A stretch of 23,195 nt of DNA from a virus (IMGVR_UViG_2778261179_000020), one strand, 5' to 3'; numbered from the stretch's first letter, positions 865 through 19,091 are shown. The notes: a model not told the origin generated them from the letters alone. Numbers and translations are program-made.

Positions 865-898
865 GTATTTAATCCATCCCTGTTATTTCCCTGACCCT

Positions 899-930
899 GT
901 CGCCGATGCGACGGGGATCCCCTTTATTTG
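899..930 (+). terminator. Putative intrinsic terminator after the GTPase gene
   Basis: Hairpin GTCGC-cgat-GCGAC followed by palindrome GGGGATCCCC and a T-rich tract TTTATTTGTTTT. Confidence 0.3.
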
Positions 931-955
931 TTTTCCCGTTATGAGGAGTCTGCTT

Positions 956-1777
956 ATGACCCGTCTGGCTTCGCGCTTTGGCGCAGCAAACCTTATCCGT
1001 CGCGACCGTCCGTTAACCCGTGAAGAGCTGTTTCGCGTAGTGCCCAGTGTGTTCAGTGAGGACAAACACGAGTCCCGTAGTGAGCGTTATACCTATATAC
1101 CCACCATCTCCCTGCTCGACAGCCTGCAGCGAGAAGGCTTCCAGCCATTCTTTGCCTGTCAGACCCGCGTGCGTGACCCGGGTCGTCGTGAACATACAAA
1201 GCATATGCTGCGTCTGCGGCGGGAAGGGCAGATCACCGGTATACAGGTGCCGGAAATTATTCTACTCAACTCTCACGATGGAACCAGTTCGTATCAGATG
1301 TTGCCGGGACTATTTCGTGCGGTTTGTCAGAACGGGCTCGTCTGCGGTGAGTCGTTTGGCGAGGTGCGGGTGCCACACAAGGGGGACGTGGTGAGTCAGG
1401 TGATTGAAGGCGCGTATGAGGTGCTGGGGATTTTTGACCGGGTGGAGGAGAAACGGGATGCCATGCAGTCGTTGCTGTTGCCACCCCCGGCACAGCAGGC
1501 ACTGGCAAAAGCCGCCCTCACATACCGCTTTGGTGAAGACCACCAGCCGGTGACTGAATCGCAGATCCTCTCCCCTCGCCGCTGGCAGGATGAGAGCAAT
1601 GACCTGTGGACCACGTACCAGCGGATTCAGGAAAACCTGATTAAGGGCGGACTCAGCGGGCGTAATGTTAAAGGCGAACGAACGCATACTCGTGCCGTGC
1701 GTGGCATTGACGGGGACGTGAAGCTTAACCGTGCGCTGTGGGTGATGGCTGAAACACTGCTCACACAACTGCATTAG
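956..1777 (+). CDS. DUF932 family protein, YafZ/YfjQ-like
   Basis: ORF 941..1777; the internal ATG at 956 has AGGAG 7 nt upstream and gives 273 aa, matching the recalled length of this family. Confidence 0.75.
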   Translation: MTRLASRFGAANLIRRDRPLTREELFRVVPSVFSEDKHESRSERYTYIPTISLLDSLQREGFQPFFACQTRVRDPGRREHTKHMLRLRREGQITGIQVPEIILLNSHDGTSSYQMLPGLFRAVCQNGLVCGESFGEVRVPHKGDVVSQVIEGAYEVLGIFDRVEEKRDAMQSLLLPPPAQQALAKAALTYRFGEDHQPVTESQILSPRRWQDESNDLWTTYQRIQENLIKGGLSGRNVKGERTHTRAVRGIDGDVKLNRALWVMAETLLTQLH

Positions 1778-1993
1778 ACGTTTTATGTTGCCACATTGTT
1801 ATTATCGGACACCACCTGTCCGAATTGCTACGTGCTCGTGTGCCTCAATCTCCCGGTAATAGCCTGTAACCCCCGTTACATCTGGCTTTTGTAGAAATAA
1901 AAAATAGTTTCTGCGTTGTCCATACCCTGTCCGCCCCCCTGTTTAAAGTAATCACATCATTTTCAGTCAGTTAACTTTCCTGGAGAACCTCTC

Positions 1994-2695
1994 ATGACAC
2001 AGGCAGAACGCCGCCATGACCGGCTGGCTGTCAGGCTGTCACTGATAATCAGCCGTCTGGTTGCGGGTGAAACGTTGAGCGTGCGCAAACTGGCGGCTGA
2101 GTTTGGCGTGTCGGTGCGCACGCTGCGGCGTGATTTTCGTGAGCGGCTGATGTATCTGGACCTGGAGTATCAGTCCGGATATTGCCGCTTACGCACAGCG
2201 GGCAGTGAGACGCAGATGGTGCCCGACGTGCTTATCTTTGCCCATCGCAGCGGGATGGCCGGTCTTTTTCCTGGCTTTGACCGCCGTCTGGTGAACGCAC
2301 TGCTGATGTGCGATGAGTCTCCCTGCGTTATAGCACCCGCCAATCCGGTTCCTTCGCCTTCAGGAGCATTGTCTTTCTGGAGACTGATTCAGGCCATTAC
2401 CGGGCGCAGGCGGGTAACGCTGATTGCCGAGGAGCAGCGCTGTGAGCGGCTGGCTCCCTGTCGGTTACTCATCCACCAGCAGGCCTGGTATCTGGTGGCA
2501 GAGCACGACGGACATATCGCCGTATTCACCCTGGATGAAATCCATCTGGTTCAGCCCCTGCAGGAGACTTTCCGGCGTAACGACAGTCTGTGTCGTCTTG
2601 TTGAAGACCCGGGCTTTATTCAGTCCTTACCCCATTTTCGCTTTATCCAGCAGTCATTGCTTACATTTGTTCCGGCTGACAGCCCACCGGAATAG
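1994..2695 (+). CDS. HTH transcriptional regulator, DeoR/WYL-type (YfjR-like)
   Basis: 233-aa ORF; N-terminal HTH-like segment [21 protein letters not shown]; GGAGAA upstream of the ATG. Confidence 0.7.
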
Positions 2696-2735
2696 CGCAG
2701 GCATTGTTATCAACCCGGCAACAGGGAGGAGCCCT

Positions 2736-2885
2736 ATGCCCGTTATTGCCATTATCGCCATTGTTGTCATCGTCATCATTCTGAACAAAACCGGGGTGTC
2801 CGACAGTCTCGCGGCCCTGACCCTTGCCACTGTTGCCGCACTGCTGACGGGAGGTGCGCAGCCGGTGCTGCCAGTGTCGCGCTGA
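2736..2885 (+). CDS. Small hydrophobic membrane protein (YpjK-like), apparently frameshifted
   Basis: ATG at 2736 with strong SD AGGGAGGA; MPVIAIIAIVVIVIILNK transmembrane segment; stop at 2883-2885. A second hydrophobic segment continues in another frame to 2971. Confidence 0.4.
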   Translation: MPVIAIIAIVVIVIILNKTGVSDSLAALTLATVAALLTGGAQPVLPVSR

Positions 2886-2970
2886 CACCGTTCGTCGGCG
2901 TGCCGGTGGGTATTTTCGTCGGCATTTATGTCTTTGCCAAAGTGGTACGTCTGATTTCAGGGAAAAAATA

Positions 2971-3414
2971 ATGAAATGTAAAACACTACCTCTGCTGGCG
3001 ATGGTTGCCACCACTCTGTTTCTGAGCGCCTGCGATGACAGGAGTGATGACCTGAAAGCTATCAGTAAATTTAAGGACCTCACGCCTCCGCGCTTCAGCG
3101 ATGTGGTCAGTCGGCAGGATGATGTCAGCGAAGAATGGTCACAGGTTGGCTTTTCATCAGGTCTCACCCTGCAGGTCTTACGTACCCGTGAGTCGCCCGA
3201 TGGCTGCGAGGGCGGTAGTTACTACTACCTCGTGGATATGCAAGAAAAAACCATCCAGCCGCTGATGAATGCGCTGTGTATTGCCGATAACATCAAACTG
3301 GAATACCAGGAGGTGACGGACCCGTATACCAAAGAAAAATACTTTGAGTACGCCCATGACGGCAAACTGATGGGGCAGCTACTGATACCCTCGAACCCTG
3401 ACAATCAGGAATAA
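2971..3414 (+). CDS. Lipoprotein (YafY/YfjS-like)
   Basis: 147 aa from ATG 2971; signal peptide with lipobox LSAC (MKCKTLPLLAMVATTLFLSACDD). The track ORF 2854..3414 has a non-native N-terminal extension. Confidence 0.7.
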   Translation: MKCKTLPLLAMVATTLFLSACDDRSDDLKAISKFKDLTPPRFSDVVSRQDDVSEEWSQVGFSSGLTLQVLRTRESPDGCEGGSYYYLVDMQEKTIQPLMNALCIADNIKLEYQEVTDPYTKEKYFEYAHDGKLMGQLLIPSNPDNQE

Positions 3415-3436
3415 AACAACGACAAAGGAGACAAGA

Positions 3437-3904
3437 ATGACAATACTTTCACTAAGTCGGTTTATGCTGGCGGGTGTACTGCTCGCGAGCTTTAATGCCT
3501 CTGCTATCCCGGGGTTCTGGCAGCAGGGTTACGGTCAGGGCAATACGGAATACAGCGTGACCGAAGCCAGCGGAAAGACGTTTACCATCAACTGCACAGG
3601 GAACCCGGACCAGAATGGTTTCTATCAGCATTCAGTCTTTCTTACCCTTGCCGATGACAAGATGGTCAGTTCGCACGATGACGACACTACTATCACCGTA
3701 GTGATGGATCACCAGCAGTACATTATTCCGTCCAGCCTGGGCTGGCGTAACGGCGATAACGCCTGGTTTGACTTCATCAGCAATATCTCTGAGGCCGGGC
3801 AGTTCGACGTCTACGTCAATGACCACAAAGCAGGGACCTTCACTGCGGACCGGAAGAACACTGAGAAAGTTCTGTCCACTCTCGGAGACTGCAGCAACGA
3901 CTGA
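3437..3904 (+). CDS. Secreted protein with signal peptide (YkfB/YfjT-like)
   Basis: 155-aa ORF; N-terminal hydrophobic signal [23 protein letters not shown]; AAAGGAGA upstream. Confidence 0.65.
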
Positions 3905-3980
3905 TAGTAGTATCTTCCCCAGCAAATCCACCCCGACAGCTAGCAGGCTGCCGGGGTTTTCTTTTATCAGGAGCCCGAAA

Positions 3981-4220
3981 ATGACCCAATCCGTGTTGCT
4001 GCCACCGGGGCCTTTCACCCGGAGACAAGCGCAAGCGGTCACTACCACGTACAGCAATATCACACTCGAAGACGACCAGGGCAGTCACTTCCGTCTGGTG
4101 GTTCGTGATACTGAAGGCCGGATGGTCTGGCGGGCATGGAACTTTGAGCCGGATGCCGGTGAAGGTCTTAACCGCTATATCCGCACCTCAGGCATCCGTA
4201 CAGACACGGCCACCCGCTGA
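3981..4220 (+). CDS. DUF905 family small protein (YkfF-like)
   Basis: 79-aa ORF from the internal ATG of track ORF 3768..4220, with AGGAG upstream; size and position match this family in CP4-type modules. Confidence 0.55.
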
Positions 4221-4273
4221 TCGCGAAGCATTTACCCGCATTCACCTCCCCGAACACACTTTATATCCCCATA

Positions 4274-4300
4274 CGCCAGCCATCGCCGCTGGCGTTTTTA
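4274..4300 (+). terminator. Putative intrinsic terminator or attenuator
   Basis: 7-bp stem CGCCAGC / GCTGGCG with 7-nt loop, followed by TTTTTA. Confidence 0.35.
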
Positions 4301-4317
4301 TTGACGGAGACATACCC

Positions 4318-4776
4318 ATGACAACACAGACGCAGCACGACCTCGCACCCGCTAACCAACCCGAATTTGAACTGACCGTCACGCCGGTCCCCGATGAACA
4401 GCGTATCGATTTCTGGCCACAGTACTTTGGCGCTATCCCGCAGTGGCTACTCCTGGAGCCGCATATCTTCGCCTGGATGGATCGCTTCTGTGAGGGCTAC
4501 AGCGGTGGTATCTGGTCGTTCTACACCCTCAGCAATGGCGGCGCATTTATGTCCCCCGAGCCTGACAACGATGAGACATGGCGTCTGTTTAACTGCCTGA
4601 ACGGTAACGATGCCCAAATGAGTGCAGAAGCAGCAGGTATTGCTGTCTGCCTGATTGCGTATAGCCACCATGCCTGCCGTACAGAATGTGACGCGATGAC
4701 CGCACACTATTACCGCCTGCGGGAGTATGCCATGCAACATCCAGAGGCTCACGCCATTCTGCGTATTATCGACTGA
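4318..4776 (+). CDS. Antirestriction protein, ArdB/KlcA family (YafX/YfjX-like)
   Basis: 152 aa from internal ATG 4318 with GACGGAGA upstream; sequence recognised as the KlcA/ArdB-like protein that precedes RadC in CP4 modules. Confidence 0.8.
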   Translation: MTTQTQHDLAPANQPEFELTVTPVPDEQRIDFWPQYFGAIPQWLLLEPHIFAWMDRFCEGYSGGIWSFYTLSNGGAFMSPEPDNDETWRLFNCLNGNDAQMSAEAAGIAVCLIAYSHHACRTECDAMTAHYYRLREYAMQHPEAHAILRIID

Positions 4777-4791
4777 CCGAAGGAGCAACAG

Positions 4792-5268
4792 ATGAAACAG
4801 CTTTCCTTTTTACCCGGCGAGATGACGCCACAGGACCGGCGTCTCATTCAGCGGGCGCTCAGGGCTCTGGACCGCCACCTGCATGAGCCCGGCGTAGCCT
4901 TCACCTCTACCCACGCCGTACGTGAATGGCTGCGACTGCATATGGCCGCGCTTGAACGGGAAGAGTTCCGGGTGTTGTATCTGGACAACCAGAATCAGTT
5001 GATTGCCCATGAAACGCTCTTCACCGGCACGATTAACCGCACCGAGGTGCATCCCCGGGAGGTGGTCAAACGTGCTCTGCACTTCAACGCGGCGGCGGTG
5101 ATACTCGCGCATAACCATCCTTCCGGCGAGACGACACCTAGCCAGGCCGACAAAACCCTCACGCAGCGACTGGTTCAGGTGCTTCAGCTGGTGGATATCC
5201 GTGTCCCTGACCATCTGATTGTCGGTGGCAGGCAAATCTATTCGTTCGCAGAACACGGTCTGCTTTGA
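4792..5268 (+). CDS. RadC-like JAB/MPN domain protein (YkfG/YfjY/YeeS-like)
   Basis: 158-aa ORF; JAMM-type motif HNHPSG; GGAG SD upstream. Confidence 0.85.
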   Translation: MKQLSFLPGEMTPQDRRLIQRALRALDRHLHEPGVAFTSTHAVREWLRLHMAALEREEFRVLYLDNQNQLIAHETLFTGTINRTEVHPREVVKRALHFNAAAVILAHNHPSGETTPSQADKTLTQRLVQVLQLVDIRVPDHLIVGGRQIYSFAEHGLL

Positions 5269-5276
5269 GGTATTAC

Positions 5277-5498
5277 ATGAAAATTATCAGTAAACGCAGG
5301 GCAATGACGATATACCGCCAGCATCCTGAGTCCCGAATCTTTCGCTACTGCACCGGCAAATACCAGTGGCACGGTAGCGTCTGTCATTACACCGGCAGGG
5401 ACGTTCCGGATATCGCCGGAGTCCTCGCGGTATACGCCGAACGCCGCCAGGACCGCAATGGGCCCTATACCTGCCTGATGAGCATCACCCTGAACTGA
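5277..5498 (+). CDS. DUF987 family protein (YkfH/YeeT-like)
   Basis: 73 aa from the internal ATG (MKIISKRRAMTIYRQHPESRIF...); conserved position between the RadC-like gene and the antitoxin. Confidence 0.65.
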   Translation: MKIISKRRAMTIYRQHPESRIFRYCTGKYQWHGSVCHYTGRDVPDIAGVLAVYAERRQDRNGPYTCLMSITLN

Positions 5499-5516
5499 CA
5501 ATAGTGGAGAACTGTA

Positions 5517-6196
<680 letters not shown>

Positions 6197-6261
6197 ACAT
6201 TGCGTACAACCTTCCCGATTTACATTTCTGAACTTCCTCCCTTGTTTACCTATTGCGTAAT

Positions 6262-6297
6262 GCGCCTGCTACTACCCGGCAGGCGCGTTATCTTTTT
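6262..6297 (+). terminator. Putative rho-independent terminator after the toxin gene
   Basis: Stem GCGCCTGC / GCAGGCGC with 9-nt loop, then GTTATCTTTTT. Confidence 0.5.
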
Positions 6298-6957
6298 ACG
6301 GACAAACAATCATGCAACCAGAAGTTGAAGTATTAACCGATCATAATGAGCTAATTTGTTCGAGCTTTATTGAACACATTGCCAACACATTAAATTTAGG
6401 AGTGGTGTACAACTAAACCTGCAGCCAAGGATGTATAGTGAGCGAAGCCCTATCAGGCCTTTTTGGTCAGTAGATAAGATTGATCTTCGTTGATAGAATT
6501 TACTTACACCAGCTGTTACATTAAGATAATTTTTTGGTGGGAGAATGATAAGATCTTACGTAACAATTTGATTTTAATGGTGCGATAATAGGAGAAAAAC
6601 ACACATCATAAATGCATGATATTTAACCGAATTTACCTATTCCATTTTTACAGATACCCCCAAAAGTACCCCCAACAAATTTTCTATACCATGATTTGTG
6701 CAAAAAATTGACTCTCCTGTACTCCCCTATTTTGTGCCCTATTGCCGATGCTACAACTAATGATATAAGTTATTGAAGCAACCTGAGTCCATTACGATAA
6801 AAATGATATAAGAAAAGAGTATAATAGTTCAACGTATTTACTATGATAAATGAAGTCGATGTGGCAGTGAAGCTCTGGAATATATTAATAATTTTAAGGG
6901 TTGTCATTAGATAACCCCAATTAAAATTGCTTACAACTGGAGTTATCTAACTTTCAC

Positions 6958-7719
6958 TCACTGAATAGTCTCATTATCTTCAGGCTTAGTTATTTCATCT
7001 TCTAATTTATCCAACCACGTTATAGCACATTGATTCAAATCGATGATCAGATTTTCCACATACACAATTATTGAATTAAATTTCCTAGGGTTAACACTAC
7101 TTTTAAACTCCCCATGTCCCAAAGAATTTCTAAGGCCAACAACCTCACCTAGTTGCGATAAATCAAGTGATGAATAATCCAAACCTATAGCATCGAAATT
7201 CACCTTGACAACCATTTCATTCACATTGGAAAATGTCATAACTAATTCAGAAACATCGCAATCTGATAATGTGGATTTATTAAACCTGTCAATGTGTTGA
7301 ATTACCTCACTTGTTAGTTTAAACGCCCCCTTCGTAACTTTCTTTTTTATTTGGGCGCCATTATGGACAATGCTTCGGTGTGAGTCAGCATCATAAATAT
7401 TTTTTATCATATCTACATACTTGCTATAAAATGGTTCTCGTTGCAACCAAAGTGCTCGAATTTCTGCAGAGTATCTAAATGCCTCTCTATCTGAGAGTTT
7501 CAATGTATTTAAGCAAACTGACATTGTTTCAGTAAAAAAACCCTCCCAAGAAGAATAAATCATTGGGACCGATATTATTCTAAACATATCCTCCTTGTCT
7601 TTATCACCTGATCTCGACATAAACTCATTAATAGACTTTATGCTCTCAAGGAATCCAAGACTTTCATTTTTCGTCTTTTCCAACATCACCTTGAAATCAT
7701 CGAAATCTGATATTCTCAT
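6958..7719 (-). CDS. HEPN-domain protein (putative RNase), third gene of the MTase-DUF262-HEPN operon
   Basis: 253 aa from ATG at 7719 (the track start at 7743 is TTG); AAGGTG upstream; C-terminal Rx4H motif in GLRNSLGHGEF; start lies 1 nt after the DUF262 stop; AT-rich. Confidence 0.55.
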   Translation of the reverse strand: MRISDFDDFKVMLEKTKNESLGFLESIKSINEFMSRSGDKDKEDMFRIISVPMIYSSWEGFFTETMSVCLNTLKLSDREAFRYSAEIRALWLQREPFYSKYVDMIKNIYDADSHRSIVHNGAQIKKKVTKGAFKLTSEVIQHIDRFNKSTLSDCDVSELVMTFSNVNEMVVKVNFDAIGLDYSSLDLSQLGEVVGLRNSLGHGEFKSSVNPRKFNSIIVYVENLIIDLNQCAITWLDKLEDEITKPEDNETIQ

Positions 7720-7720
7720 T

Positions 7721-8833
7721 TTATCCAAACACCTTCTTCCCAAGAGCGATTCTTTTCTCTAATTTGGCTTTAGTATTAGATCCAGAACCAGTACAAGCTC
7801 TTAATTCTTTGATCTCACCATCCATTAAATAATCAAATCTTTTCGCCACCTCAGCAGGTGTTAAATTATCTACATTACTAAAAATACCAACAGCAACAAC
7901 ATCTAATAAATTAGTACTAAACGGGCCACTTGGAGCACCATCCTTTCTAAATTTAAATGCTTTACCAGATAAACCAGCAATATTTATCAAATCAAAAGTT
8001 CTTTTTATTTTTAATTCAAAATTAATATCAATAACATTATGTTCTGCCGCGTAGAACATAAATTCATCCAAAAAGTCAGTTACACTATGGCTAAATTTAT
8101 CCGCATAAGTCAAAGATGCCATAACTCGTAGCAAAGCTTCCTCAACACCTTGAGATTTTTGGCCATCTTCATTTATTCCAAGAGCTTGAACAATACCATC
8201 AATTTCGGCCATCTTACGTAAGCGATCTGCAAATTCATTCCCTGCTAATCTAGCCATGCAATTACGTATTTCCTGGTCACTCAAACGAACACCAGACCTA
8301 TTCAGTCGTTTAAAAACATTATATTTAGTTTCAGGTTTTGTTTCTTGCTCCAAAATAACAACATTTACTCGCGCATTTTTTATAGTTCGGCTAACTTTGT
8401 CCGGCAATCCTTTTGCAGTCCATCCATTTAATTCTGTAATTATAGGCACATCATCAAGAACAGTTGGATTACGGACATCATTTACAGAGTTTTGTTTCTT
8501 TGCATTATCTATTTCTTCCTTATTAAAAATATCCTCTGAAAAAAATCTAATTATAGTACTCACACGTTGCAATCCATCGATAACCTCCTGCTTACCATTA
8601 TTATCAATGTAGAAAAAAAGTGTTGGCGTAGGTATATTTAAAAGTAATGACTCGATAAATTGGCTTTGTCTTGCGTTATCCCAACGAAAAAGCCTTTGGT
8701 AGTCTGGAGAAATGGTTATCTCATTTTCTTTATATAGATTAATTACTTCACGCCATGATATGGTATAAGAATCAGTTACTACCTCATCTCTTTTTTCATC
8801 TATCTGAGATAGCAATTTAGTTACGTCATTCAT
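7721..8833 (-). CDS. DUF262 (ParB/Srx-like NTPase) domain protein
   Basis: 370-aa ORF; hallmark motifs DYQRLFRW and IDGLQR (DGQQR-like) in the N-terminal half; its ATG overlaps the MTase stop (ATGA). Confidence 0.75.
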   Translation of the reverse strand: MNDVTKLLSQIDEKRDEVVTDSYTISWREVINLYKENEITISPDYQRLFRWDNARQSQFIESLLLNIPTPTLFFYIDNNGKQEVIDGLQRVSTIIRFFSEDIFNKEEIDNAKKQNSVNDVRNPTVLDDVPIITELNGWTAKGLPDKVSRTIKNARVNVVILEQETKPETKYNVFKRLNRSGVRLSDQEIRNCMARLAGNEFADRLRKMAEIDGIVQALGINEDGQKSQGVEEALLRVMASLTYADKFSHSVTDFLDEFMFYAAEHNVIDINFELKIKRTFDLINIAGLSGKAFKFRKDGAPSGPFSTNLLDVVAVGIFSNVDNLTPAEVAKRFDYLMDGEIKELRACTGSGSNTKAKLEKRIALGKKVFG

Positions 8834-10056
8834 TTTGTTATCCTTATGATTTTTTCAAAATAAACTTTATCTTTAATATAATTTTTTGACTTGGTATTTA
8901 TTTGTCCAAATATTGCTTTAACTTGATCTTCTCTCACACATTTCGCTTCTGAAAACCCAATAGAAAGCGCCATTTCACAATAAATATCATAAAGCGGAAT
9001 CTCTATTTCCTTATAATATGAATTTTGTATTACAAAATAACCAGAGCAACCTACCTTTAAAACTCTAAAGATTTCCATTAATGACTCATACGCATCAGAA
9101 AAATATCTAATTTTATTTTTAAGGTAATAACTTCCAGATGCTCTTGATGTATGCGATGTTACCGATGACAAAACATCCATACACAATGGCCCCCATTTTT
9201 TATTAATTTCATCCGCAACTTTAGGCACAGTCGTCGTGCCCATCATTTCCTTTCTAAGAGACTTATATCCCTCACTCCCTAAAATTATTTCCAACTCAAG
9301 ACGAGTAGAAACGGCATAGTCTATTCGTGTTAAATACGGTGGCGATGTAATAACAAGATCAATTGTGTTACTTTTAATATTTAATTTTTTACTATCCACG
9401 TTTAAAATCGAGTAACATGCCCCCCCATTAGCGCTGCCATAATATTCACTTAACTGCTCACGCATAATTTTAAAATTTTTATTATATTCAAAACAAATAT
9501 CAAATTTATTATTAAAGTCTACTTTTTTAGAAATCCATGTAGGATTTGAAGTTGACCTAACATCAAGGACATTGCGAACAGTATAAAATAAAACACTGCA
9601 ATAAAATGCTTTTAAAGGATTTACGATATCATTTTGTCCTTTATCCATAAACTGATCACAGATACATTTATAAAACTTTTGTAACTGTTCAATAAGTGGA
9701 TAGCCCTTCGATGACTCAGTTATATCTTTTGTTTTTTTTCTAAAGCAAAGCAGTATCCTTTCCAGGAGTTGCTCTCCGGTATAATCCAGCGCTGAAATAT
9801 TATCCCTACTTTTGGCTGCAGCAAAATAGCTCATTACAGGATTAATATCTGCTCCAATACACTTTATGGTTTGCTTTTGACAAACTATACCAGTGGTACC
9901 GCTTCCCATCCAAGGATCAAGAACGGTAGCGGACGACTTAACTCCTTCAGCCTGCAAAACAGAAGCCACAAATGACTCTGAATAGCCCGCATAGTATGGA
10001 TGCCAAGAGTGAAGCCCCTTGCGTTCGTTTCTCCCTCTTTTCGCGCCTGCAATCAT
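8830..10056 (-). CDS. DNA amino-methyltransferase (N6-adenine or N4-cytosine)
   Basis: 408-aa ORF; AdoMet motif I DPWMGSGTT near the N-terminus and catalytic motif IV SPPY (LVITSPPYLTRIDY) mid-protein. Confidence 0.85.
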   Translation of the reverse strand: MIAGAKRGRNERKGLHSWHPYYAGYSESFVASVLQAEGVKSSATVLDPWMGSGTTGIVCQKQTIKCIGADINPVMSYFAAAKSRDNISALDYTGEQLLERILLCFRKKTKDITESSKGYPLIEQLQKFYKCICDQFMDKGQNDIVNPLKAFYCSVLFYTVRNVLDVRSTSNPTWISKKVDFNNKFDICFEYNKNFKIMREQLSEYYGSANGGACYSILNVDSKKLNIKSNTIDLVITSPPYLTRIDYAVSTRLELEIILGSEGYKSLRKEMMGTTTVPKVADEINKKWGPLCMDVLSSVTSHTSRASGSYYLKNKIRYFSDAYESLMEIFRVLKVGCSGYFVIQNSYYKEIEIPLYDIYCEMALSIGFSEAKCVREDQVKAIFGQINTKSKNYIKDKVYFEKIIRITK

Positions 10057-10405
10057 CTTTAAATCACTTACCCAAAATTTTCAATTGAGGCTCATAATAC
10101 GGGGATCCGTATAAGCTCAAAATTTGCTCCTGAAGTTAACTGATTAGGATACTTGAAACACAGAGTCTTTCAATAATGATTAAGCAATCCTGCGTAAGTG
10201 CTCTCCTCAACATGCCTGCCTGCTTCACATGGTCAATTCTCCTGCATACGTATGGCAAAAAGCCTATCAGAATCGGCAGTTTTCAACATAAACTCCCACC
10301 AGCCACAGAACACAATATTACGACATAAAAAATATCAACCAATTAACGCATCGATAAGCTAGACGGCTAGCGAACTCAATTTTGAACTACCTTTTAAACA
10401 ACCCT

Positions 10406-10585
10406 TTATCGCCGCAGCCTGTCCGGTTTCTTCCACTGATACGGCCTCACATCATCATGCTGGTGGCGTTCCTGTTGCAGCACAACGGAAACAGGCGCTG
10501 AACACCTGTTAATTTTGCTTGCTGGTTGTTTGATTTCGGCAATGCTGCGGAGCATCTCCAGCATATCGGCTTCGGTGATGGTCAT
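10406..10585 (-). CDS. Hypothetical small protein (59 aa), first ORF upstream of the MTase operon
   Basis: ATG at 10585 with AAGGTG 3-4 nt upstream; translation MTITEADMLEMLRSIAEIKQ...; not in the ORF track (under 60 aa). Confidence 0.25.
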   Translation of the reverse strand: MTITEADMLEMLRSIAEIKQPASKINRCSAPVSVVLQQERHQHDDVRPYQWKKPDRLRR

Positions 10586-10614
10586 GATTTACACCTTAGG
10601 AAATCTTAGGGGCT

Positions 10615-10875
10615 GGTTGACACTTTCCGGCTTAAGACCTTAATAAATCTTAATACCGCAGGTTGACACACTTGACACTTTTTCGCGAAAAACCTTATCA
10701 AACCTTAGCATTTCTAAGCATGGCAACTTGACACTTTTCGCTATTTTTTCGGTTTTTTGACGTGGTGAATATGGTACAAGGCCAGTAATGGCGAGGCATC
10801 CAGCGAGGTTGACACTTTTTCGCGTTCAGAGTGTAAAGTGTCAACCTGGCAAACTGCTCAACTTGACACTTTTTG
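10615..10875. repeat. Array of seven TTGACAC(TTTT) repeats (six direct, one inverted)
   Basis: TTGACAC at 10617, 10663, 10672, 10728, 10809, 10863 and inverted at 10838-10844. Copies at 10807-10818 and 10835-10846 form a 12-bp inverted pair GGTTGACACTTT / AAAGTGTCAACC. Confidence 0.6.
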
Positions 10876-10878
10876 AGG

Positions 10879-11406
10879 TCATTGATGGCCTGATTTTTCC
10901 CATTCAGCCAAGGCGTTTAGTCCTGCCTCACTCCATGTGTCCTGTTCATCGGGACAATCGCTGGCAACATAGCAGAGTTCGCAACGCAGCATACGAATTG
11001 CCAGCCTGGCATTACCTCGCAAATTGTATTTTTCAAAGTAATGCTGCCCTTCATCATCCTCAAGACAGATAGCACCATCATCAAGAAAGTGCACTTCCCA
11101 GCCTAATTCCCCGGCTGCATACAGCACACGCTGCTGTATGGCCTCGTCCGTTACTGGCGCAGGAATTTTACCGTCTCTGGCCTTAACTGCTTTCCAGAAC
11201 TCGCCCCATGTCATTTCCAGCGTTCTTTCTGGCCACATTTCAGAAATGGTGTCTTTCCCCTGTGCTGGTGGGCTGTTCCGCTGCTCTGTCGCTTCCACAT
11301 CAATTTTTTTACCGGACATGACCACTTCGCCTTTCTCGAGCCAGTCGTAAACTGTCTGGCGGCTTACGCCTTTGTATTTGGCGTATTCGGCTTTACTCAT
11401 CAACAT
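10879..11406 (-). CDS. Putative DNA-binding protein with N-terminal winged-HTH (Nu1/MerR-superfamily-like)
   Basis: Track ORF 10879..11424; the ATG at 11406 has GAGGTG 7 nt upstream. The N-terminal segment KGVSRQTVYDWLEKGEV resembles the HTH of lambda Nu1-type small terminases, by recollection. Confidence 0.5.
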   Translation of the reverse strand: MLMSKAEYAKYKGVSRQTVYDWLEKGEVVMSGKKIDVEATEQRNSPPAQGKDTISEMWPERTLEMTWGEFWKAVKARDGKIPAPVTDEAIQQRVLYAAGELGWEVHFLDDGAICLEDDEGQHYFEKYNLRGNARLAIRMLRCELCYVASDCPDEQDTWSEAGLNALAEWEKSGHQ

Positions 11407-11505
11407 GTAGCTCACCTCATGCATATACGATAAAAAATAATTTCATGCGGAAAGGGAATGCGTTGTGGGTATGGAGGAAAGGGGCAATAACCGCCCCTTA
11501 CTGAT

Positions 11506-11778
11506 TCAGTTGCGCCAGGATGGCTGGCTAAGCGTGGTTTTCATTACATCATTGACGACCTGTTTTACGATTTCTGTGTTGGCAGTCGTGCTTTCAACAT
11601 CAACAAAGCCATAATCGCCAATTTCCACTGTCAGGGATTCCAGTTTCTTCCCCAGTGCATCTGGCAACTCTCCACTGAACCGGTGCCGAAGATTTTCCAC
11701 CAGCAAAGCCCTGAATGCCTCGCTGTTCTCTTTTTTCTGCCATAGCTGGCGTTTATCCACTCTGATATTTAATTTCAC
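11506..11778 (-). CDS. Hypothetical protein (90 aa)
   Basis: GTG start with AGAGGTGAGG upstream; the start overlaps the stop of the upstream 55-aa ORF (GTGA). Confidence 0.45.
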   Translation of the reverse strand: MKLNIRVDKRQLWQKKENSEAFRALLVENLRHRFSGELPDALGKKLESLTVEIGDYGFVDVESTTANTEIVKQVVNDVMKTTLSQPSWRN

Positions 11779-11942
11779 AGCCTCACCTCTTTAAGTGCCT
11801 TATCCATCAGTTGCCGGGCAGTAACATGAATCGACGGTGCCACACCAAGCACAGATTTCTGACGCTCTTCGTCCTGGATGCGTTGCAGGGCTTCGATCTG
11901 CCTCCGGGAAAGTAAAACTGGCTTTACTCCGTGATTTTTCAT
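11775..11942 (-). CDS. Hypothetical small protein (55 aa)
   Basis: ATG at 11942 within track ORF 11775..12098; ATGA overlap with the upstream hydrophobic ORF; plausible charged-residue composition. Confidence 0.35.
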   Translation of the reverse strand: MKNHGVKPVLLSRRQIEALQRIQDEERQKSVLGVAPSIHVTARQLMDKALKEVRL

Positions 11943-12178
11943 GATGTTCCCTTCTGAATGACAATAATTGCAATTATTGCACAAATTGAAATGATACCAG
12001 AGACAATTGCAATAAATGAAACGAAAAGCATCAATAAACCAACCTTCGGCACTGAATGCTCTGATTTTTCTGCAAAGGTATGGCAGATGTTGGTGCATGC
12101 AAACATAAAGGCAATAGCAGAAGAAACAGCGGGGAGTGAAAAGGGGAAGTTTTTATAAATACACGATTGTCGCCTCAC
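11939..12178 (-). CDS. Possible small hydrophobic peptide; start uncertain
   Basis: Hydrophobic stretch VGLLMLFVSFIAIVSGIISICAIIAIIVI; its stop overlaps the next start; AT-rich; no clear SD. Confidence 0.25.
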   Translation of the reverse strand: MRRQSCIYKNFPFSLPAVSSAIAFMFACTNICHTFAEKSEHSVPKVGLLMLFVSFIAIVSGIISICAIIAIIVIQKGTS

Positions 12179-12220
12179 TGCAGGTTAACAGCCACAAACC
12201 CCATGATAATAACTTGTTAA

Positions 12221-12544
12221 TTATTTCATCAGATTTTTCATTATTTGCGCGATTGAGTACACAAGCAAAAACTCGGCAGCCGCAAGAGTATAAAAAACAT
12301 AAATTCGCTTAGCCCACCGACGATGAAAGAACTCCTCAGCATGGCCGAATGTTCGAGATACAAGCCATGCACCTACTGCACACAGAGCAGGTGCAATGAG
12401 CACAGTTATAAACCAGATTGTGATGCCCATCCCATGCCTACTGATAATAGCCATTGGTATTGCAAAAATGAATGTTAGAGCAGCATTAGCTAATAGAATA
12501 TCTTTTAAAGTATTTTCAATTAGTTTTTCTAGATTATCTTTCAT
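12221..12544 (-). CDS. Small membrane protein (107 aa, 2-3 predicted TM helices)
   Basis: ATG at 12544; hydrophobic segments ALTFIFAIPMAIISRHGMGITIWFITVLIAPALCAVGAWLV and IYVFYTLAAAEFLLVYSIA; low GC. Confidence 0.5.
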   Translation of the reverse strand: MKDNLEKLIENTLKDILLANAALTFIFAIPMAIISRHGMGITIWFITVLIAPALCAVGAWLVSRTFGHAEEFFHRRWAKRIYVFYTLAAAEFLLVYSIAQIMKNLMK

Positions 12545-12573
12545 CTAATCCCCCCGTTGGACATTAATATATA

Positions 12574-12596
12574 AAAGCCCCTTACTAAGGGGCTTT
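12574..12596 (-). terminator. Putative intrinsic terminator between the lipoprotein and membrane-protein genes
   Basis: Inverted repeat AAAGCCCC...GGGGCTTT (8-10 bp stem, short loop) flanked by A/T-rich sequence. Confidence 0.45.
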
Positions 12597-12607
12597 GCAC
12601 GGATTGT

Positions 12608-13750
12608 TTAAAGGGAACTTTTTTTCGCCCCTTCAATTTCTGCCTGACAAATTTCGTCATTTGTAAATGAGTACTGCAGATAGACATATCCCTGAGTGGA
12701 ATTGTTCGCTCTGGCCTCAATAGAGATAGTATCAATATTGTTTTTTAATGGTATTTCTTTTGTTCCCTTCCATGTGGCAGATAAGAAGCGTTCTTTTTTG
12801 TTTAGCCCCCTCATCCAGTCCTGAGGATCTTTCCAAATTGAACCAGCCAGCAAAAAGTCTGTAGTATCAGCCTTTCCATACAGAGAACTTAAAGAATTAC
12901 TCAATTCTTCAAACTTGGATTTAAGAGCCAATCCATAGCTATCAGTATCAATATTTTTTCCTAAAGCCCGTATTTGACATAAACCAGCTTTCGGGGAGAT
13001 CAACAAACCATACATTTCAAAATCTGCGTTTTGCTTCGGTAATTTATCAGAAGTATACAGATTCACACTGTCTGGTAGTGGCTTGAGCTTAGCACCGATC
13101 ATATCTTCGATGTTTTTCTGTGTAAGACCGGCTTCTAAGCCAAACGGACCATCCGCTGGCGGGAGTAAAGGAAGTTGATCTTGGGAATTTTTGGCTGTTA
13201 CTTCCGTTTCAGTACTGTTTTTTGCGTCATTATCTTGTACTGATGCCAGCTTAACTTCAGCGAGGCCATACTTGGCTGTGAGGTACTTTTGCTGCAACAT
13301 TGCCATAGTCTGCTCTTCAGTGGCAACAGTAGATAATTTTAGTACCTTTATCAGACCACCACTATACTGACGAGCATCAGCTTTGGCTTCGTTGATTTTT
13401 GCATCTAAGCTGTCAATTTCAGTTTTAATTGAAGCAGCAAGCTCAGGATCAGGTTTTACTCCAGATACAACAACATCAATTTTGGCGCCTGATTCAATAG
13501 CATTAATACGCTGTTCCAAAAGCGCTTTATTAGTTCCTAATATTTCCAGTCTTGCTGTTGTCAGATTTTTTATCAACCCACCAGAAAACTGCTGGTCAAC
13601 TTCCTTAGCTGCTGATATTTCACCTTCCGTTTGCGACAGTTCAGCTTTAAGAGCCGCTACTTCCTGTTTCTGTTCTGGCGTTAACTCTTCTGGCCCACAT
13701 CCGGTTAACATTACTATACCGACTAATGTTGCAATTAAAGTTTTATTCAT
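12608..13750 (-). CDS. Lipoprotein of unknown function, coiled-coil N-terminal half with an internal repeat
   Basis: 380-aa ORF; signal peptide plus lipobox MNKTLIATLVGIVMLTGCG; duplicated motif QFSGGLIKNL / QYSGGLIKVL; low GC. Confidence 0.65.
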   Translation of the reverse strand: MNKTLIATLVGIVMLTGCGPEELTPEQKQEVAALKAELSQTEGEISAAKEVDQQFSGGLIKNLTTARLEILGTNKALLEQRINAIESGAKIDVVVSGVKPDPELAASIKTEIDSLDAKINEAKADARQYSGGLIKVLKLSTVATEEQTMAMLQQKYLTAKYGLAEVKLASVQDNDAKNSTETEVTAKNSQDQLPLLPPADGPFGLEAGLTQKNIEDMIGAKLKPLPDSVNLYTSDKLPKQNADFEMYGLLISPKAGLCQIRALGKNIDTDSYGLALKSKFEELSNSLSSLYGKADTTDFLLAGSIWKDPQDWMRGLNKKERFLSATWKGTKEIPLKNNIDTISIEARANNSTQGYVYLQYSFTNDEICQAEIEGAKKSSL

Positions 13751-13884
13751 ATCCCTATTCCAAATGAAAATATTCAGATTAATCTTATCAGGAACCCAGA
13801 TGCAATTGAATATTCATCTGCTCAGCAACGTAGTAGATTTCCTCAGAAAGCATCAACAAAAAACCAAGAGAATCCCATCCTCTG

Positions 13885-14172
13885 TTACTGACTACAATTG
13901 TTCTTTTTTTGGTATTTCCTGAATGCCTCACCATTGGGCTGATGTAATCCCATCCCGGCATGTGCCCGGCTGATGGTTTTGCGCATCTCCCCGAAATTAT
14001 CCTGCCTTGCTGGTGGGCGTGCTGCCTTGTGGATACATTCCGCGCGACGTTTTGCCGCCAGCTCCCGTGCCTTGTCATCATTCGCCAGCATGATGACCTC
14101 AGCCCACCGCGCCGCCGCTCTCCGGTACAGACCACGCGCTTCCAGAGCTTCCGCTTTGCTGTCGTGAATCAT
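13885..14172 (-). CDS. PerC-family transcriptional regulator-like protein
   Basis: 95-aa ORF; N-terminus MIHDSKAEALEARGLYRRAAARWAEVIM matches my recollection of PerC/Pch proteins; its ATG overlaps the stop of the FinO-like gene. Confidence 0.55.
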   Translation of the reverse strand: MIHDSKAEALEARGLYRRAAARWAEVIMLANDDKARELAAKRRAECIHKAARPPARQDNFGEMRKTISRAHAGMGLHQPNGEAFRKYQKKNNCSQ

Positions 14173-14591
14173 GCGCCTGTTTTCTCCTTTGCTGCCCGAC
14201 GCTGACGTTTGCGTTTCTCATTCAGCGCAACCAGCCGCGTTTCTGCGTCCTGTTGTTCCTGTGGTGTCACCTCGCCGCACGGCTGGCATTTCAGGTCGTA
14301 GCGTACCCCACCAGCCATTAAGGCGCGGTAATAGCGCGGACACTGCGCATAAGATGCCAGCGTCGCACGCAATGCCCCTGGCCCGAATGCCAGCCCCCTG
14401 ACGGCGAGATCCTGCATCAGGTCGTCGAATATCCCCACCTTAAGCGGCTTCGGTGCTTCCCGGCTGAATAATTCAGGCCACAACTCAGTGAGGCGGTTAA
14501 CGCGTCTGCGGTTTTTTCGCTGCCGTTTGGTCATATGCCGCCACGGTGTTGCCCCTGTGGGCTTCTGCTGCGCTTCCTGGTTACCGGGCAT
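14169..14591 (-). CDS. ProQ/FinO-family RNA-binding protein
   Basis: Track start at 14594 is GTG; ATG at 14591. Segment LWPELF...KPLKVGIFDDL...ALRATLASYAQCPRYYRALMAGGVRYDLKCQPCGEVT fits the FinO/ProQ domain pattern. Confidence 0.6.
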   Translation of the reverse strand: MPGNQEAQQKPTGATPWRHMTKRQRKNRRRVNRLTELWPELFSREAPKPLKVGIFDDLMQDLAVRGLAFGPGALRATLASYAQCPRYYRALMAGGVRYDLKCQPCGEVTPQEQQDAETRLVALNEKRKRQRRAAKEKTGA

Positions 14592-14716
14592 CACTTTATG
14601 CGCCGATGTGGTTTTATCCGCTGCTGCGCCGCCTGCGTCGTTTTCTGCGGCGTGCCGTAAATACCTTTTGGTTTTCTGTTAATGGTCAGCTTAGTCATGC
14701 TTTGCCCCATCGTTAC

Positions 14717-15054
14717 AACTGTCTACCAACTGTCTACCGATATAATTGATTGATTTATTTAATGTTATTAACACATAACAAAAAAACAATCTGCAAACTG
14801 TCTACCAACGGTCTACCGCATTAATACATTGATAATTAATGATTTTTACTAAATGGTAGACAGTGTAGACAGTTAAAAGAGAAATTTAAAAAATGCCCCC
14901 TTAACTATCTGTTTTTTATATACCCCCCGTGGTTTAGGAATATAGAAATAACTGTCTACCTCTCTACCACATTGAAAATATCTTTATAATTCAAAATATT
15001 AATTGGTAGATGGTTGGTAGAGGGTTAAGTGAATCTGTCTACCAACCGTCTACC
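14717..15054. repeat. Iteron array, putative origin of replication
   Basis: About 12 copies of NGTCTACC, as four tandem pairs with 11-bp period (14717/14728, 14796/14807, 14950/14961, 15033/15044) plus inverted copies at 14855-14872 and 15005-15024, flanking an AT-rich core; immediately 3' of the primase gene. Confidence 0.6.
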
Positions 15055-15081
15055 TTTACGTTTCAGCTTATAAATTTCGTA

Positions 15082-16887
15082 TTATGTTCTGTCGTTAATC
15101 CCTGTAGCTGCTGGCAACCAGCCATCAGCATCATCATCTAACAGAACATTTGTTATCACTCGCCCTTTATCCGGGCCTTTAGTGCATTTAGCCCGCTTAT
15201 ACTCCTTTCCGTATTCCGCCATAGCTCCTGGCATATCAGTACCAAAGCGTGTCAGTGATACTGGTTTTCCCAGGCCATGCGCTGACATATAGGCTAAATA
15301 AGCATGATACAGGTATCGCCTCGGGCTAAATGGCACTATTTCCGCATTGCCCACCATCATTCCTTCACATTTAACCAACGACATCAGATAGCCGCAAAAG
15401 TCCACCAGTGAATCACCTTCGCGCTTTATCAACAGCGCTTCTTCTGATTTTTGCTGCTCATAAAGTAGTCTTTTAGCTTCGTCCTGGTCGGTAAATCGTG
15501 TTAGCAAATGGCGAATCACTACCGCCAGTTCGCCTTCTATCTTTTCCGCCAGCATGGGATCGCGTTCGTTCTCCGGTACGACCTCAGAGAAATTAAATAT
15601 CACCCTACGACGCGAGATCCCCCCGCTTCGGTCACTGAATGACATGGCGTTATTGTTTACCGCAAGCACTACTGCCGGAATACGTGTGGAGTAGGGGGCT
15701 TTATGTTTCGGATCAATTGCCACCTTGTCGCCGCCAGTAATTGCCTTAATTCCTGCACCATCGCCAGCGTAGCGAGTCATATCCGGCATGATAATCAGCG
15801 AAAAGCCAACTACTAACGCGCGTTCCCTTGCGTCTTCCAGAGCCTTCATGCTTGCCGATACTGTGTTGGCCTTACCCGCCAGCATGGTACAAATCTCAGC
15901 CATCACACTTTTACCGCTTCCGCCTGGGCCTGTTACCTCAAGGAATAACTGCCAGTCGTACCGGTTCGCCAGTACCATGAATAATGCCGCCAGTACGCGA
16001 TCAGCTTTACGATCATTATCTGCCACCGAACGACGCAGCCACTTCCAGAAATTCGGCGCATGTGTTGCCAGCGTTTCCCCCTCTGCTGGTGGGCTGAACG
16101 GTAATTCACTGGCATTTAACAACCAGTCATTTTTGTTATGCTCCCGAAAATTTCCCGTCCGGGTATCAAATACCCCGTTACTGAATCCAATAAGATTCCT
16201 GTCTGCCCCGCCCATAACAGGCAGGCTCAATTTCATTGTGTCTACGGCAAATTTAATGGCGTTTTGCGAATAACTGATTCCAGCATCAATAAAAATCTTC
16301 GCCATAGACCGCTGGAGTTCCTTATCAGATACAGGCACCCAGACAATTCCGTTGTAATGGTGAACTACATCAGAATCATCATTTATAGCCAGTGCTCTTC
16401 CATAATATTCAAGTAACACTTCCCCTCTCTGGCTGGCTCCCATCTGATTTAGTGCTGGCCTGGATAGGTCAATATTTTTTGTGGCTAATTTCATCGCTGA
16501 AACTTCCCCACTCTCTGCCTGTTCGCGGATCCGTTGCAGGTAGTCGCGCCAGTTTTCCGGCTCCCGGTCGGTGATACCTTTGTATAATTTCGCGTCCTGT
16601 ACACCAGCCAGCGCCAGCTTTTCAGCAATAGCATTGATCTGGATTGGCTCTATCTCCCCCGCGAGATAGACACGCGCAAAGCGGCGTTCATCGTCGACAA
16701 TGCGGATATTCGCCAGGTCTGCCAGTTGCTTTGGCCCCAGGTAAACAGGAGGCACGTTATCGCCGTGTTTTCGTCCTTCGCTTTCAATCCAGTGTTGAGC
16801 ATGGGCGTAAGCATCCGTCCCGGCAAAAATGATTACCTCGGTGAATTTATCCTTCGGCTGATATTTTAAATTCGGTGCGTTTTTCAC
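15082..16887 (-). CDS. Primase/helicase-like replication initiator (P4-alpha / D5-type P-loop NTPase)
   Basis: 601-aa ORF; Walker A GPGGSGKS; GTG start with GGGAGGT upstream, overlapping the preceding gene's stop. Confidence 0.85.
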   Translation of the reverse strand: MKNAPNLKYQPKDKFTEVIIFAGTDAYAHAQHWIESEGRKHGDNVPPVYLGPKQLADLANIRIVDDERRFARVYLAGEIEPIQINAIAEKLALAGVQDAKLYKGITDREPENWRDYLQRIREQAESGEVSAMKLATKNIDLSRPALNQMGASQRGEVLLEYYGRALAINDDSDVVHHYNGIVWVPVSDKELQRSMAKIFIDAGISYSQNAIKFAVDTMKLSLPVMGGADRNLIGFSNGVFDTRTGNFREHNKNDWLLNASELPFSPPAEGETLATHAPNFWKWLRRSVADNDRKADRVLAALFMVLANRYDWQLFLEVTGPGGSGKSVMAEICTMLAGKANTVSASMKALEDARERALVVGFSLIIMPDMTRYAGDGAGIKAITGGDKVAIDPKHKAPYSTRIPAVVLAVNNNAMSFSDRSGGISRRRVIFNFSEVVPENERDPMLAEKIEGELAVVIRHLLTRFTDQDEAKRLLYEQQKSEEALLIKREGDSLVDFCGYLMSLVKCEGMMVGNAEIVPFSPRRYLYHAYLAYMSAHGLGKPVSLTRFGTDMPGAMAEYGKEYKRAKCTKGPDKGRVITNVLLDDDADGWLPAATGINDRT

Positions 16888-17174: not shown

Positions 17175-17178
17175 GGTT

Positions 17179-18538: not shown

Positions 18539-18604
18539 AATCGTTACCTCGTTTAACGGTTTGGTTAGACGCCCTGCATGTGTGCCACCACTGCGGGGCG
18601 TTGC

Positions 18605-19034: not shown

Positions 19035-19091
19035 CCACTATAGGTGCCGTGGTGTGAGGAACTACGGTGCATTATTTTACAGGGCAGCGCC

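Follow-up and report, generated by a model that had tools for sequence, protein, structure and literature searches.

A DNA methyltransferase-DUF262-HEPN cassette on an Escherichia coli mobile island: a probable defence module of a computationally catalogued class

The three-gene cassette

The stretch of DNA analysed here (IMGVR_UViG_2778261179_000020; 23,195 nucleotides (nt), hereinafter the window) contains, close to one end of a mobile island of Escherichia coli, a compact cassette of three genes, which encode, in the order of the operon, a DNA amino-methyltransferase (MTase), a protein with a DUF262 domain, that is, a ParB-like nucleoside triphosphatase (NTPase), and a HEPN protein (Table 1). 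In our assessment, this cassette is very probably a defence module of the general class 'DNA methylase + ParB/DUF262 + MAE_28990/RiboL-PSP HEPN'.

Table 1. Features of the cassette and its surroundings, in window coordinates
Feature	Position	Strand	Remarks
DNA amino-methyltransferase (MTase)	8830-10056	minus	408 amino acids (aa), first gene of operon
DUF262 (ParB-like NTPase) with C-terminal helical ParBDB-like domain	7721-8833	minus	370 aa
HEPN protein, RiboL-PSP / MAE_28990 families	6958-7719	minus	253 aa counted from ATG
Upstream non-coding region of cassette	10057-10409	minus	weak sigma-70-like site inside
Strong hairpin	6907-6950	minus	inverted repeat I4, 16-nt arms, starts 8 nt after HEPN stop
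25-nt att-like direct repeat CAGATACCCCCAAAAGTACCCCCAA	6651-6675		island end
Island backbone	10410-23195	minus	RefSeq annotation of identical copies

The three genes are packed in a manner that indicates translational coupling. When read base by base, the TGA stop codon of the MTase gene and the ATG of the DUF262 gene share the tetranucleotide ATGA (8833-8830), whereas the TAA of the DUF262 gene, ending at 7721, is separated by a lone A (7720) from the HEPN ATG at 7719; the open reading frame (ORF) of the HEPN gene, taken mechanically, extends back to a TTG at 7743. The guanine-plus-cytosine (GC) content of the cassette is 0.341, compared to 0.538 in the left flank and 0.468 in the island backbone, and is uniform among the three genes (0.338-0.344). 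Comparison with the related locus L008 (87-90% nucleotide identity) yields ratios of nonsynonymous to synonymous substitution rates (dN/dS) of 0.16 for the MTase, 0.06 for the DUF262 protein and 0.10 for the HEPN protein. The cassette genes are real, intact and subject to purifying selection.

The MTase is of the N6_N4 type (Pfam N6_N4_Mtase, 6.6e-14), whereas the D12 model scores only 0.015. The Pfam match consists of two stretches that are permuted relative to the beta-class profile, with motif I (DPWMGSGTT, residues 47-55) located near the N-terminus and motif IV (TSPPYLTRIDYA, residues 237-248, with SPPY at 238-241) in the middle of the protein. All the invariant residues of the 12-sequence family alignment A3, DPWxGSGTT and TSPPYLTRIDYA among them, are retained, and the PADLOC models of Type II MTases (MTase_II) are matched over their full length. 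Hence, one hallmark of a Type II restriction-modification (R-M) system, an S-adenosylmethionine-dependent MTase with motifs I and IV, is present in the cassette. Residues ~90-230 are variable and presumably comprise the target-recognition region, which differs from that of the XhoI-linked relatives; the sole 'N4-cytosine' label comes from one source and is an annotation only. Some MTases of the same family reach 708-709 aa, namely those of Peribacillus (L027:5001-7130), Bacillus salipaludis and Wukongibacter (proteins P0215, P0218); they are encoded beside a DUF262-HEPN pair and carry an extra C-terminal extension of ~280 aa, for which the Pfam and PADLOC searches gave no match.

The second protein contains the GmrSD_N (DUF262) domain (Pfam, 9.8e-27) with all three DUF262 motifs, QRLFRW, DGLQR and FKRLN, which appear in the alignment of homologues as the invariant QRxxxW, DGLQR and FxxxN. 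The C-terminal half of the protein is all-helical and ParBDB-like and does not include a nuclease domain, and the predicted role of the protein is that of a DNA sensor or switch. Among the PADLOC models, NsnA is matched best (1.2e-55, 187 bits, residues 16-366 against profile positions 42-376 of 385), and PD-T4-2_A (PDLC04027) is matched over the full length (1.1e-41, 141 bits). However, all DUF262-ParBDB proteins that we checked score similarly on these two models, so that both matches are to be taken as a superfamily-level signal. Near the ParBDB-like C-terminus (residues 349-361), there is a glycine-rich motif, G-x-G-S-N-T-x-x-K-x-x-x-R, invariant in 38 of the 38 aligned homologues, which, judging from its composition, may be involved in phosphate or DNA binding.

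The third protein belongs to the HEPN_RiboL-PSP (Pfam, 1.8e-15) and HEPN_MAE_28990 (3.9e-7) families and contains the Rx4H motif RNSLGH at residues 197-202, in which R197, N198, G201 and H202 are invariant among homologues. By analogy with other members of these families, it is predicted to function as an RNase effector. This protein has no PADLOC match even at E <= 1, and the same holds for 11 related HEPN partners. A sequence search of the PDB yielded no relatives for the DUF262 or the HEPN protein, so that for these two proteins a fold search was needed; the domain identities and folds of the cassette proteins are secure.

The second hallmark of an R-M system, a restriction endonuclease (REase), is missing: no REase gene and no further ORF are present in the cargo slot of the island that the cassette fills, and a hidden Markov model (HMM) of the XhoI-family REases that occur in related loci has no match in the window. 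Likewise, none of the three cassette proteins has a Pfam match to DUF1524/HNH. Thus, the cassette is not a canonical type II R-M system, and the current models of PADLOC 2.0 do not recognise the MTase-DUF262-HEPN combination as a system.

Most of what had been claimed in a first, sequence-only reading of this locus withstands these analyses. The co-orientation of the genes (all on the minus strand), the ATGA overlap and the 1-nt spacer hold base by base, the depression of the GC content is evident relative to both flanks, all the motifs quoted in that reading are present and invariant in homologue alignments, and its domain calls are correct, with the Pfam profiles identifying gene 2 as DUF262 and gene 3 as HEPN. 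The statement that a HEPN protein takes the place of DUF1524/HNH next to a coupled MTase is supported by Pfam and by the reading of the junctions, and the view of the three genes as one acquired unit is in line with their uniformly low GC content and with their position as the terminal cargo of a mobile island. In the comparison with catalogued defence systems that had been proposed as a check, PADLOC calls no system, and the DUF262 protein matches NsnA and PD-T4-2_A at the superfamily level only.

Related loci and the carrier island

The association of the three genes was followed in ~25 related loci (designated L with a number), which were seeded separately from the HEPN, DUF262 and MTase proteins. 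Homologues of the HEPN protein are few (27 clusters in a word-indexed search; 165 representative clusters at E <= 1e-3 among 1.84 billion proteins), and in every HEPN-seeded locus the DUF262 gene is found directly upstream. The DUF262 subfamily is large, with more than 4000 matches at ~361-374 aa; all four sampled DUF262-seeded loci encode a HEPN protein downstream and an N6_N4 MTase beside the pair. When the search started from the MTase (36-40% identity), three of the four loci adjoined a DUF262-HEPN pair, in varying gene order (Bacillus, Peribacillus, Rhizobium), and the fourth, L028 from Laspinema, proved to be an XhoI-family R-M system with a gene for a C-protein-like helix-turn-helix (HTH) protein and without DUF262 or HEPN. 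Thus, DUF262-HEPN adjacency is seen in every seeded locus except L028, with an N6_N4 MTase within ~1-2 genes, in organisms that span the Gamma-, Beta-, Alpha- and Deltaproteobacteria, Acidobacteriota and Bacillota.

The related loci fall into two architectures. The form found in the window (architecture A) combines a long permuted MTase (408-452 aa) with DUF262 and HEPN, has no restriction enzyme, and occurs in Enterobacterales, Vibrio, Shewanella, Photobacterium, Janthinobacterium, Thiohalomonas, Bacillota and metagenomes. In architecture B, a canonical beta-class MTase and a small restriction-enzyme-like gene accompany the DUF262-HEPN pair. The small gene is of the XhoI family (PF04555) in L011, L012, L013, L015 and L017. 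Elsewhere, the fourth gene belongs to one of two further families, U1 and U2, namely one of ~235 aa (L014:4077-4418, L023:4260-4967, L024:4205-4669 and, on a Paraburkholderia plasmid, L029:3076-3792) and a second family of ~290 aa (L016:7805-8677), which is also found beside a long MTase in Rhizobium (L026:4145-5011). Neither Pfam nor PADLOC yields a match for the fourth-gene families U1 and U2; given their position, that of the restriction enzyme, the two fourth-gene families may represent unrecognised type II REases. Since the pair joins XhoI-family operons and the long MTase family serves the R-M system of L028, the triad appears to be tied to XhoI-type R-M systems, which suggests that it descends from, or swaps parts with, such systems.

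Across these contexts, the identity to the window proteins amounts to 42-48% for DUF262 and 27-34% for HEPN, whereas, in the case of the MTase, the loci have either an orthologue (33-44%) or a different MTase in its place. The neighbours of the related loci include type II R-M, Shedu and AbiJ-type (AbiJ_NTD4) genes. In two loci, the MTase gene is damaged next to intact DUF262 and HEPN genes, being split by a frameshift in Providencia rettgeri (L005:3656-4884) and truncated in L014 (3427-4080). In Photobacterium sp. GJ3, a gene for a phage CI-repressor-like protein (L002:2992-3600; PF07022 + PF16452) shares 4 nt with the beginning of the MTase gene and may be a controller or repressor of the triad; no counterpart of this gene is present in the E. 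coli cassette. There are also DUF262-HEPN pairs apart from such MTases. They are of the RiboL-PSP / MAE_28990 families and occur on IncX plasmids that are widespread in E. coli and Salmonella, directly after the replication gene, as well as in a P2-like phage. One of them resides on the E. coli IncX1 plasmid p573-5 (L031, 2878-4518), without an MTase; another is found in the P2-like phage P24B2 (L032, 140-2015), with only a small phage methylase nearby. PADLOC calls neither of these two pairs PD-T4-2.

As to the genomic setting, the window comes from E. coli, and the block from ~6576 to its end recurs at 99.6-100% identity in 13 of 5426 complete genomes; an IMG/VR 'viral' contig contains the same island element. 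The island, ~16.6 kb in size, is integrative and occupies a site at the tRNA-Thr gene (thrW) next to proA. Its genes encode a tyrosine integrase, an HTH regulator, AntA/AntB, an Icd-like protein, DNA primase, ProQ/FinO and PerC. The island is satellite-like, resembling phage-inducible chromosomal islands (PICI), and its backbone is context that lies outside the defence module. RefSeq names the cassette products 'DNA methyltransferase', 'DUF262 domain-containing protein' and 'MAE_28990/MAE_18760 family HEPN-like nuclease'. The 25-nt att-like repeat recurs, 96% identical, between the integrase gene and tRNA-Thr in L019 and L020; since it takes this place in full copies of the island, the repeat in the window marks the island end, and in genomes that lack the island the match to the left flank extends as far as position 6674.

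At the other side of the cassette, position 10409 is the junction between variable cargo and conserved backbone, and islands with other cargo share sequence with the window only from 10192-10410 onward. Because the backbones of other strains carry different genes in this place, the three genes can be seen to fill a variable terminal cargo slot (~6676-10409), and defence genes are typically found in such variable cargo slots of mobile elements. The copy of this backbone in strain 537-20 carries genes for a 329-aa protein mis-named 'orthopoxvirus A36R protein' and a 123-aa hypothetical protein together with small ORFs, a cargo that may be another defence system.

Several non-coding elements adjoin the cassette. 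The sigma-70-like site of the upstream region (TTGAAA, 16 nt, TATCCT, at 10173-10146) is a consensus match only, with 9 of 12 positions. The hairpin that follows the HEPN gene has a predicted RNA folding energy of -22.9 kcal/mol (z = -4.7; none of 200 shuffled sequences folds as well), lacks a U-tract and may be a terminator or a stabiliser of the mRNA 3' end. A 45-aa hydrophobic ORF beyond this hairpin (MTTLKIINIFQSF..., 6770-6907, minus strand) was considered as a small fourth gene and rejected: it is kept in the closest relative only, with 51% amino-acid as against 73% nucleotide identity, and, because the divergence is greater in the protein than in the DNA, it is probably non-coding. An RNA antitoxin, or repeats of the type III toxin-antitoxin kind (as for AbiF), can also be dismissed, as tandem repeats are absent from the cassette and its immediate surroundings and the cargo slot contains no Rfam family; the only Rfam family in the window is the int-alpA RNA (RF02996; 21869-21936, minus strand, 45.5 bits, E = 1.2e-6), which adjoins the island integrase gene. 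The left flank (window 1-6674) is a CP4-6-like prophage remnant, 99.5% identical in many E. coli genomes, with genes for a GTPase, DUF932, yfjR, ykfG/RadC-JAB, ykfB and toxin-antitoxin-like small genes; the island is inserted in tandem between this remnant and thrW.

A methylation-linked reading and its rivals

How could such a cassette operate? We consider moderately likely a sensor-effector mechanism that is linked to R-M and to DNA methylation. On this reading, a horizontally acquired anti-phage cassette is carried by a satellite-like island as cargo, at the end that bears the attachment site. The MTase, translated first, would methylate a specific sequence in the host DNA (yielding N6-methyladenine or N4-methylcytosine) and thereby mark self. 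The DUF262-ParBDB protein would function as an NTP-dependent DNA-binding switch, similar to GmrSD, BrxU and SspE but without their DNase, and would monitor the DNA or its modification state. Upon the appearance of foreign or unmodified DNA, or when a phage blocks modification or restriction, the DUF262 protein would release or activate the HEPN protein, whose Rx4H site would cleave RNA (tRNA or mRNA), so that translation would stop and the infection would be aborted. The defence activity itself, RNA as the target and the way in which methylation gates the switch are the parts of this scheme that we infer.

The scheme is supported by the translational coupling of the three genes in the order MTase-DUF262-HEPN, by their secure domains, by the uniform GC content of 0.34 and by the dN/dS values of 0.06-0.16, as well as by the adjacency of DUF262 and HEPN, the linkage of the MTase to this pair and the position in a variable cargo slot. 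By analogy, it would be consistent with two validated relatives, PD-T4-2 and PD-lambda-5, with the PrrC-type model, in which the HEPN RNases that are linked to R-M systems are proposed to stay silent while R-M works and to be released when it is overcome (Anantharaman et al. 2013), and with the precedent of DARNA.

There are, however, observations that weigh against this reading. The HEPN protein is taken to be an RNase by family precedent only. The DUF262 protein stays at 42-48% identity across different MTase architectures and at least three REase families and, because it is conserved regardless of which type of MTase or REase is present, it probably does not read the MTase target alone. Its specificity could be borrowed from the MTase, in the same way as Res of the Type III systems depends on Mod, or a generic cue could be sensed. 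Furthermore, MTase-less pairs exist (PD-T4-2, the IncX1 plasmid pair and the P2-like phage pair), and at least one of them, PD-T4-2, works. Finally, the intact pairs beside the damaged MTases of L005 and L014 hint that the pair is not lethal in the absence of methylation, with the qualification that the sample consists of these two loci, in which assembly errors are possible.

The same observations lend themselves to the strongest rival, a possible though less convincing explanation whereby the DUF262-HEPN pair is autonomous. Like PD-T4-2, it would not read methylation at all but would respond to some general sign of infection (for instance, modified phage DNA, DNA ends or nucleotide levels) and would serve as a second line of defence beside R-M, as PrrC does with EcoprrI or BrxU with BREX; in the clade of the window, the REase would have been lost, and the MTase would be what is left of a type II R-M system. 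Apart from the independent conservation of DUF262, the MTase-less pairs and the broken MTases, this explanation draws on the full type II R-M systems of the XhoI family that lie beside the pair in distant loci (L011, L012, L013, L015, L017), on the other two fourth-gene families in the same position (L014/L023/L024/L029 and L016/L026), and on L028, where the MTase family of the window partners an XhoI-family REase without DUF262 and HEPN. A leftover MTase, however, would hardly have remained intact, translationally coupled and orthologous (E < 1e-70) across four proteobacterial classes and Bacillota and in several gene orders, with its HEPN partner drifting to 27-30% identity. Since the orthologous MTase remains with the pair across phyla and gene orders and is under purifying selection (dN/dS 0.16), the view of the MTase as a mere remnant is argued against; moreover, the MTase is linked in all the loci examined, a far closer association than the usual clustering of genes in defence islands.

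The methylation-linked reading also admits a stronger version, which we advance tentatively and hold to be rather unlikely: an 'R-M' system without a restriction enzyme, in which the ParB-like NTPase, with the MTase as its specificity subunit, would read methylation, and the HEPN protein would act on RNA. If this is true, the cassette would represent methylation-gated, RNA-targeting immunity, and the XhoI-type and other loci that combine R-M with the pair would be evolutionary intermediates.

Improbable, in our view, is a true R-M system, in which DUF262 would be the 'ParB nuclease' that, with or without HEPN, cuts or nicks unmethylated DNA, with the MTase protecting the host. The gene order and the overlaps do resemble those of an R-M operon, the DUF262 protein has a weak match to a single PADLOC 'REase_II' model (PDLC03418, 9e-10; up to 1e-12 in relatives), and ParB has been treated as an endoDNase fold found in R-M systems (Anantharaman et al. 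2013). Nevertheless, in the characterised DUF262 proteins this domain is an NTPase or a sensor, and it is DUF1524 that cuts; the HEPN active sites are metal-independent RNase sites; and many relatives already have a separate REase. Least probable is an addiction (post-segregational killing) module that would stabilise the island, with HEPN as the toxin kept silent by the MTase and/or DUF262: HEPN proteins frequently serve as the toxin in toxin-antitoxin systems, R-M-like modules are able to cause addiction, and the cassette is located on a mobile island, but its variable cargo slot is typical of defence genes, the backbone persists with other cargo, the closest relatives for which assays exist defend against phage, the neighbours in related loci are defence genes (Shedu, AbiJ_NTD4, R-M), and the cassette contains neither RNA-antitoxin-like repeats nor an Rfam match.

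Regarding novelty, the cassette is not a new kind of system, and specialists would expect such a variant; its sequence, however, is distinct from the validated relatives and is missed by PADLOC. Because the current PADLOC models miss it, the cassette constitutes an unannotated piece of the defence repertoire of E. coli, on an island that is found in clinical and avian pathogenic strains. More generally, few genes are linked to R-M as frequently as those for HEPN RNases, and PrrC-EcoprrI is almost the sole case in which the coupling is understood; the cassette family provides a compact model that consists of three proteins and is found in E. coli itself. Three forms make up a natural series: the PD-T4-2-like pair by itself, the pair plus an MTase, as in the cassette, and the pair plus a complete XhoI-type R-M system. 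This series makes the coupling of R-M to HEPN-mediated abortive infection (Abi) testable, in particular, the question of whether DNA methylation can gate an RNA-targeting response, and it also bears on what a DUF262 NTPase senses when no DNase is attached.

Comparison with known systems

The likeness to PrrC-EcoprrI and DARNA (PD-T7-3) is one of principle: in both, a HEPN RNase is kept inactive and then switched on, and tRNA anticodon loops are cut. The trigger is the state of the R-M partner in the case of PrrC and a DNA signal in the case of DARNA, where a DNA-sensing domain, or a DNA signal, can activate the HEPN tRNase. In sequence and architecture, however, these systems are unrelated to the cassette, PrrC being an ABC-ATPase-HEPN fusion and DARNA a single-protein dodecamer, and neither includes DUF262.

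GmrSD, BrxU and SspE share with the cassette the N-terminal DUF262 NTPase fold, with motifs that include DGxQR, and a helical middle domain. They differ in having a DUF1524 His-Me nuclease domain, in attacking modified DNA and in lacking a cognate MTase; because the cassette has no DUF1524 domain, assignment to the GmrSD/Type IV systems was rejected. The Menshen system (NsnABC) was rejected as well. Its NsnA has the DUF262 + ParBDB architecture, is the proposed sensor and provides the best PADLOC match of the cassette DUF262 protein; however, the genes for the NsnB ATPase and then the NsnC effector follow immediately downstream (PMC12065111), whereas the cassette contains neither NsnB nor the inPIN-nuclease NsnC, and there is no ATPase ORF in 6676-10409.

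In PD-lambda-5 ('ParB/HEPN, methyltransferase') from strain ECOR7, the same set of domains, ParB-like, HEPN and DNA methyltransferase, affords broad protection, and the authors describe a compacted 'RM+Abi' system, the cloning of which required a host deleted for the mrr region (PMC9519451). Here, ParB and HEPN are fused in one protein and the MTase is of the D12 class (PF02086), as opposed to N6_N4 in the cassette; there is no detectable sequence relationship, and no PD-lambda-5 model is among the PADLOC matches of the cassette. The relation of PD-lambda-5 to the cassette is one of functional analogy and not of homology. Given PD-lambda-5, the claim of the sequence-only reading that no characterised three-gene system has such a composition was overstated, although for the exact MTase-DUF262-HEPN triad our literature search found no characterising paper.

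PD-T4-2 ('DUF262, HEPN') from ECOR65 resembles the cassette in its DUF262 and HEPN genes, which form a two-gene unit of their own; it defends K-12 against T4, and its activity was shown also by deletion in ECOR65 (Vassallo et al. 2022, PMC9519451). The HHpred top matches of its B protein, PF18735 and PF18737 (PMC9519451), are the same two Pfam families to which the cassette HEPN protein belongs. The view that DUF262-HEPN neighbourhoods had been noted only computationally does not hold, since this pair was validated in 2022. Yet, PD-T4-2 has no MTase, whereas in the cassette the MTase is translationally coupled to the pair and conserved with it; the PD-T4-2 HEPN protein is smaller, its two ORFs together spanning only 1540 bp; and the cassette HEPN protein and 11 relatives do not match the PD-T4-2_B model. 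This comparison is one of PADLOC HMMs and the HHpred tables of the paper. Since the score with NsnA is higher than that with PD-T4-2_A (187 vs 141 bits), the cassette DUF262 protein appears to belong to a sibling subfamily and not to be an orthologue of PD-T4-2_A.

The closest correspondence is to a class known from comparative genomics. DUF262 (COG1479), frequently found in fusions with nuclease domains, HEPN among them, has been tied to DNA-modification systems (Makarova et al. 2013, PMC3632139), and the triad 'MAE_28990 / Ribo L-PSP HEPN + ParB nuclease + DNA methylase' has been catalogued computationally (Anantharaman et al. 2013, Biol Direct 8:15, Table 1). Accordingly, of the proposal of a 'candidate undescribed' defence system, the candidacy for defence stands, by genomic context, but 'undescribed' does not. 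That description comprises one line of a table and a PrrC-like model, and does not distinguish triads that lack a REase from the forms in which a full R-M system accompanies the pair. The cassette agrees with it in that the HEPN protein matches PF18735 and PF18737, with the Rx4H motif conserved, the DUF262 and methylase genes are in the same operon, and RefSeq already names the HEPN gene after the MAE_28990 family: the cassette is a member of this class.

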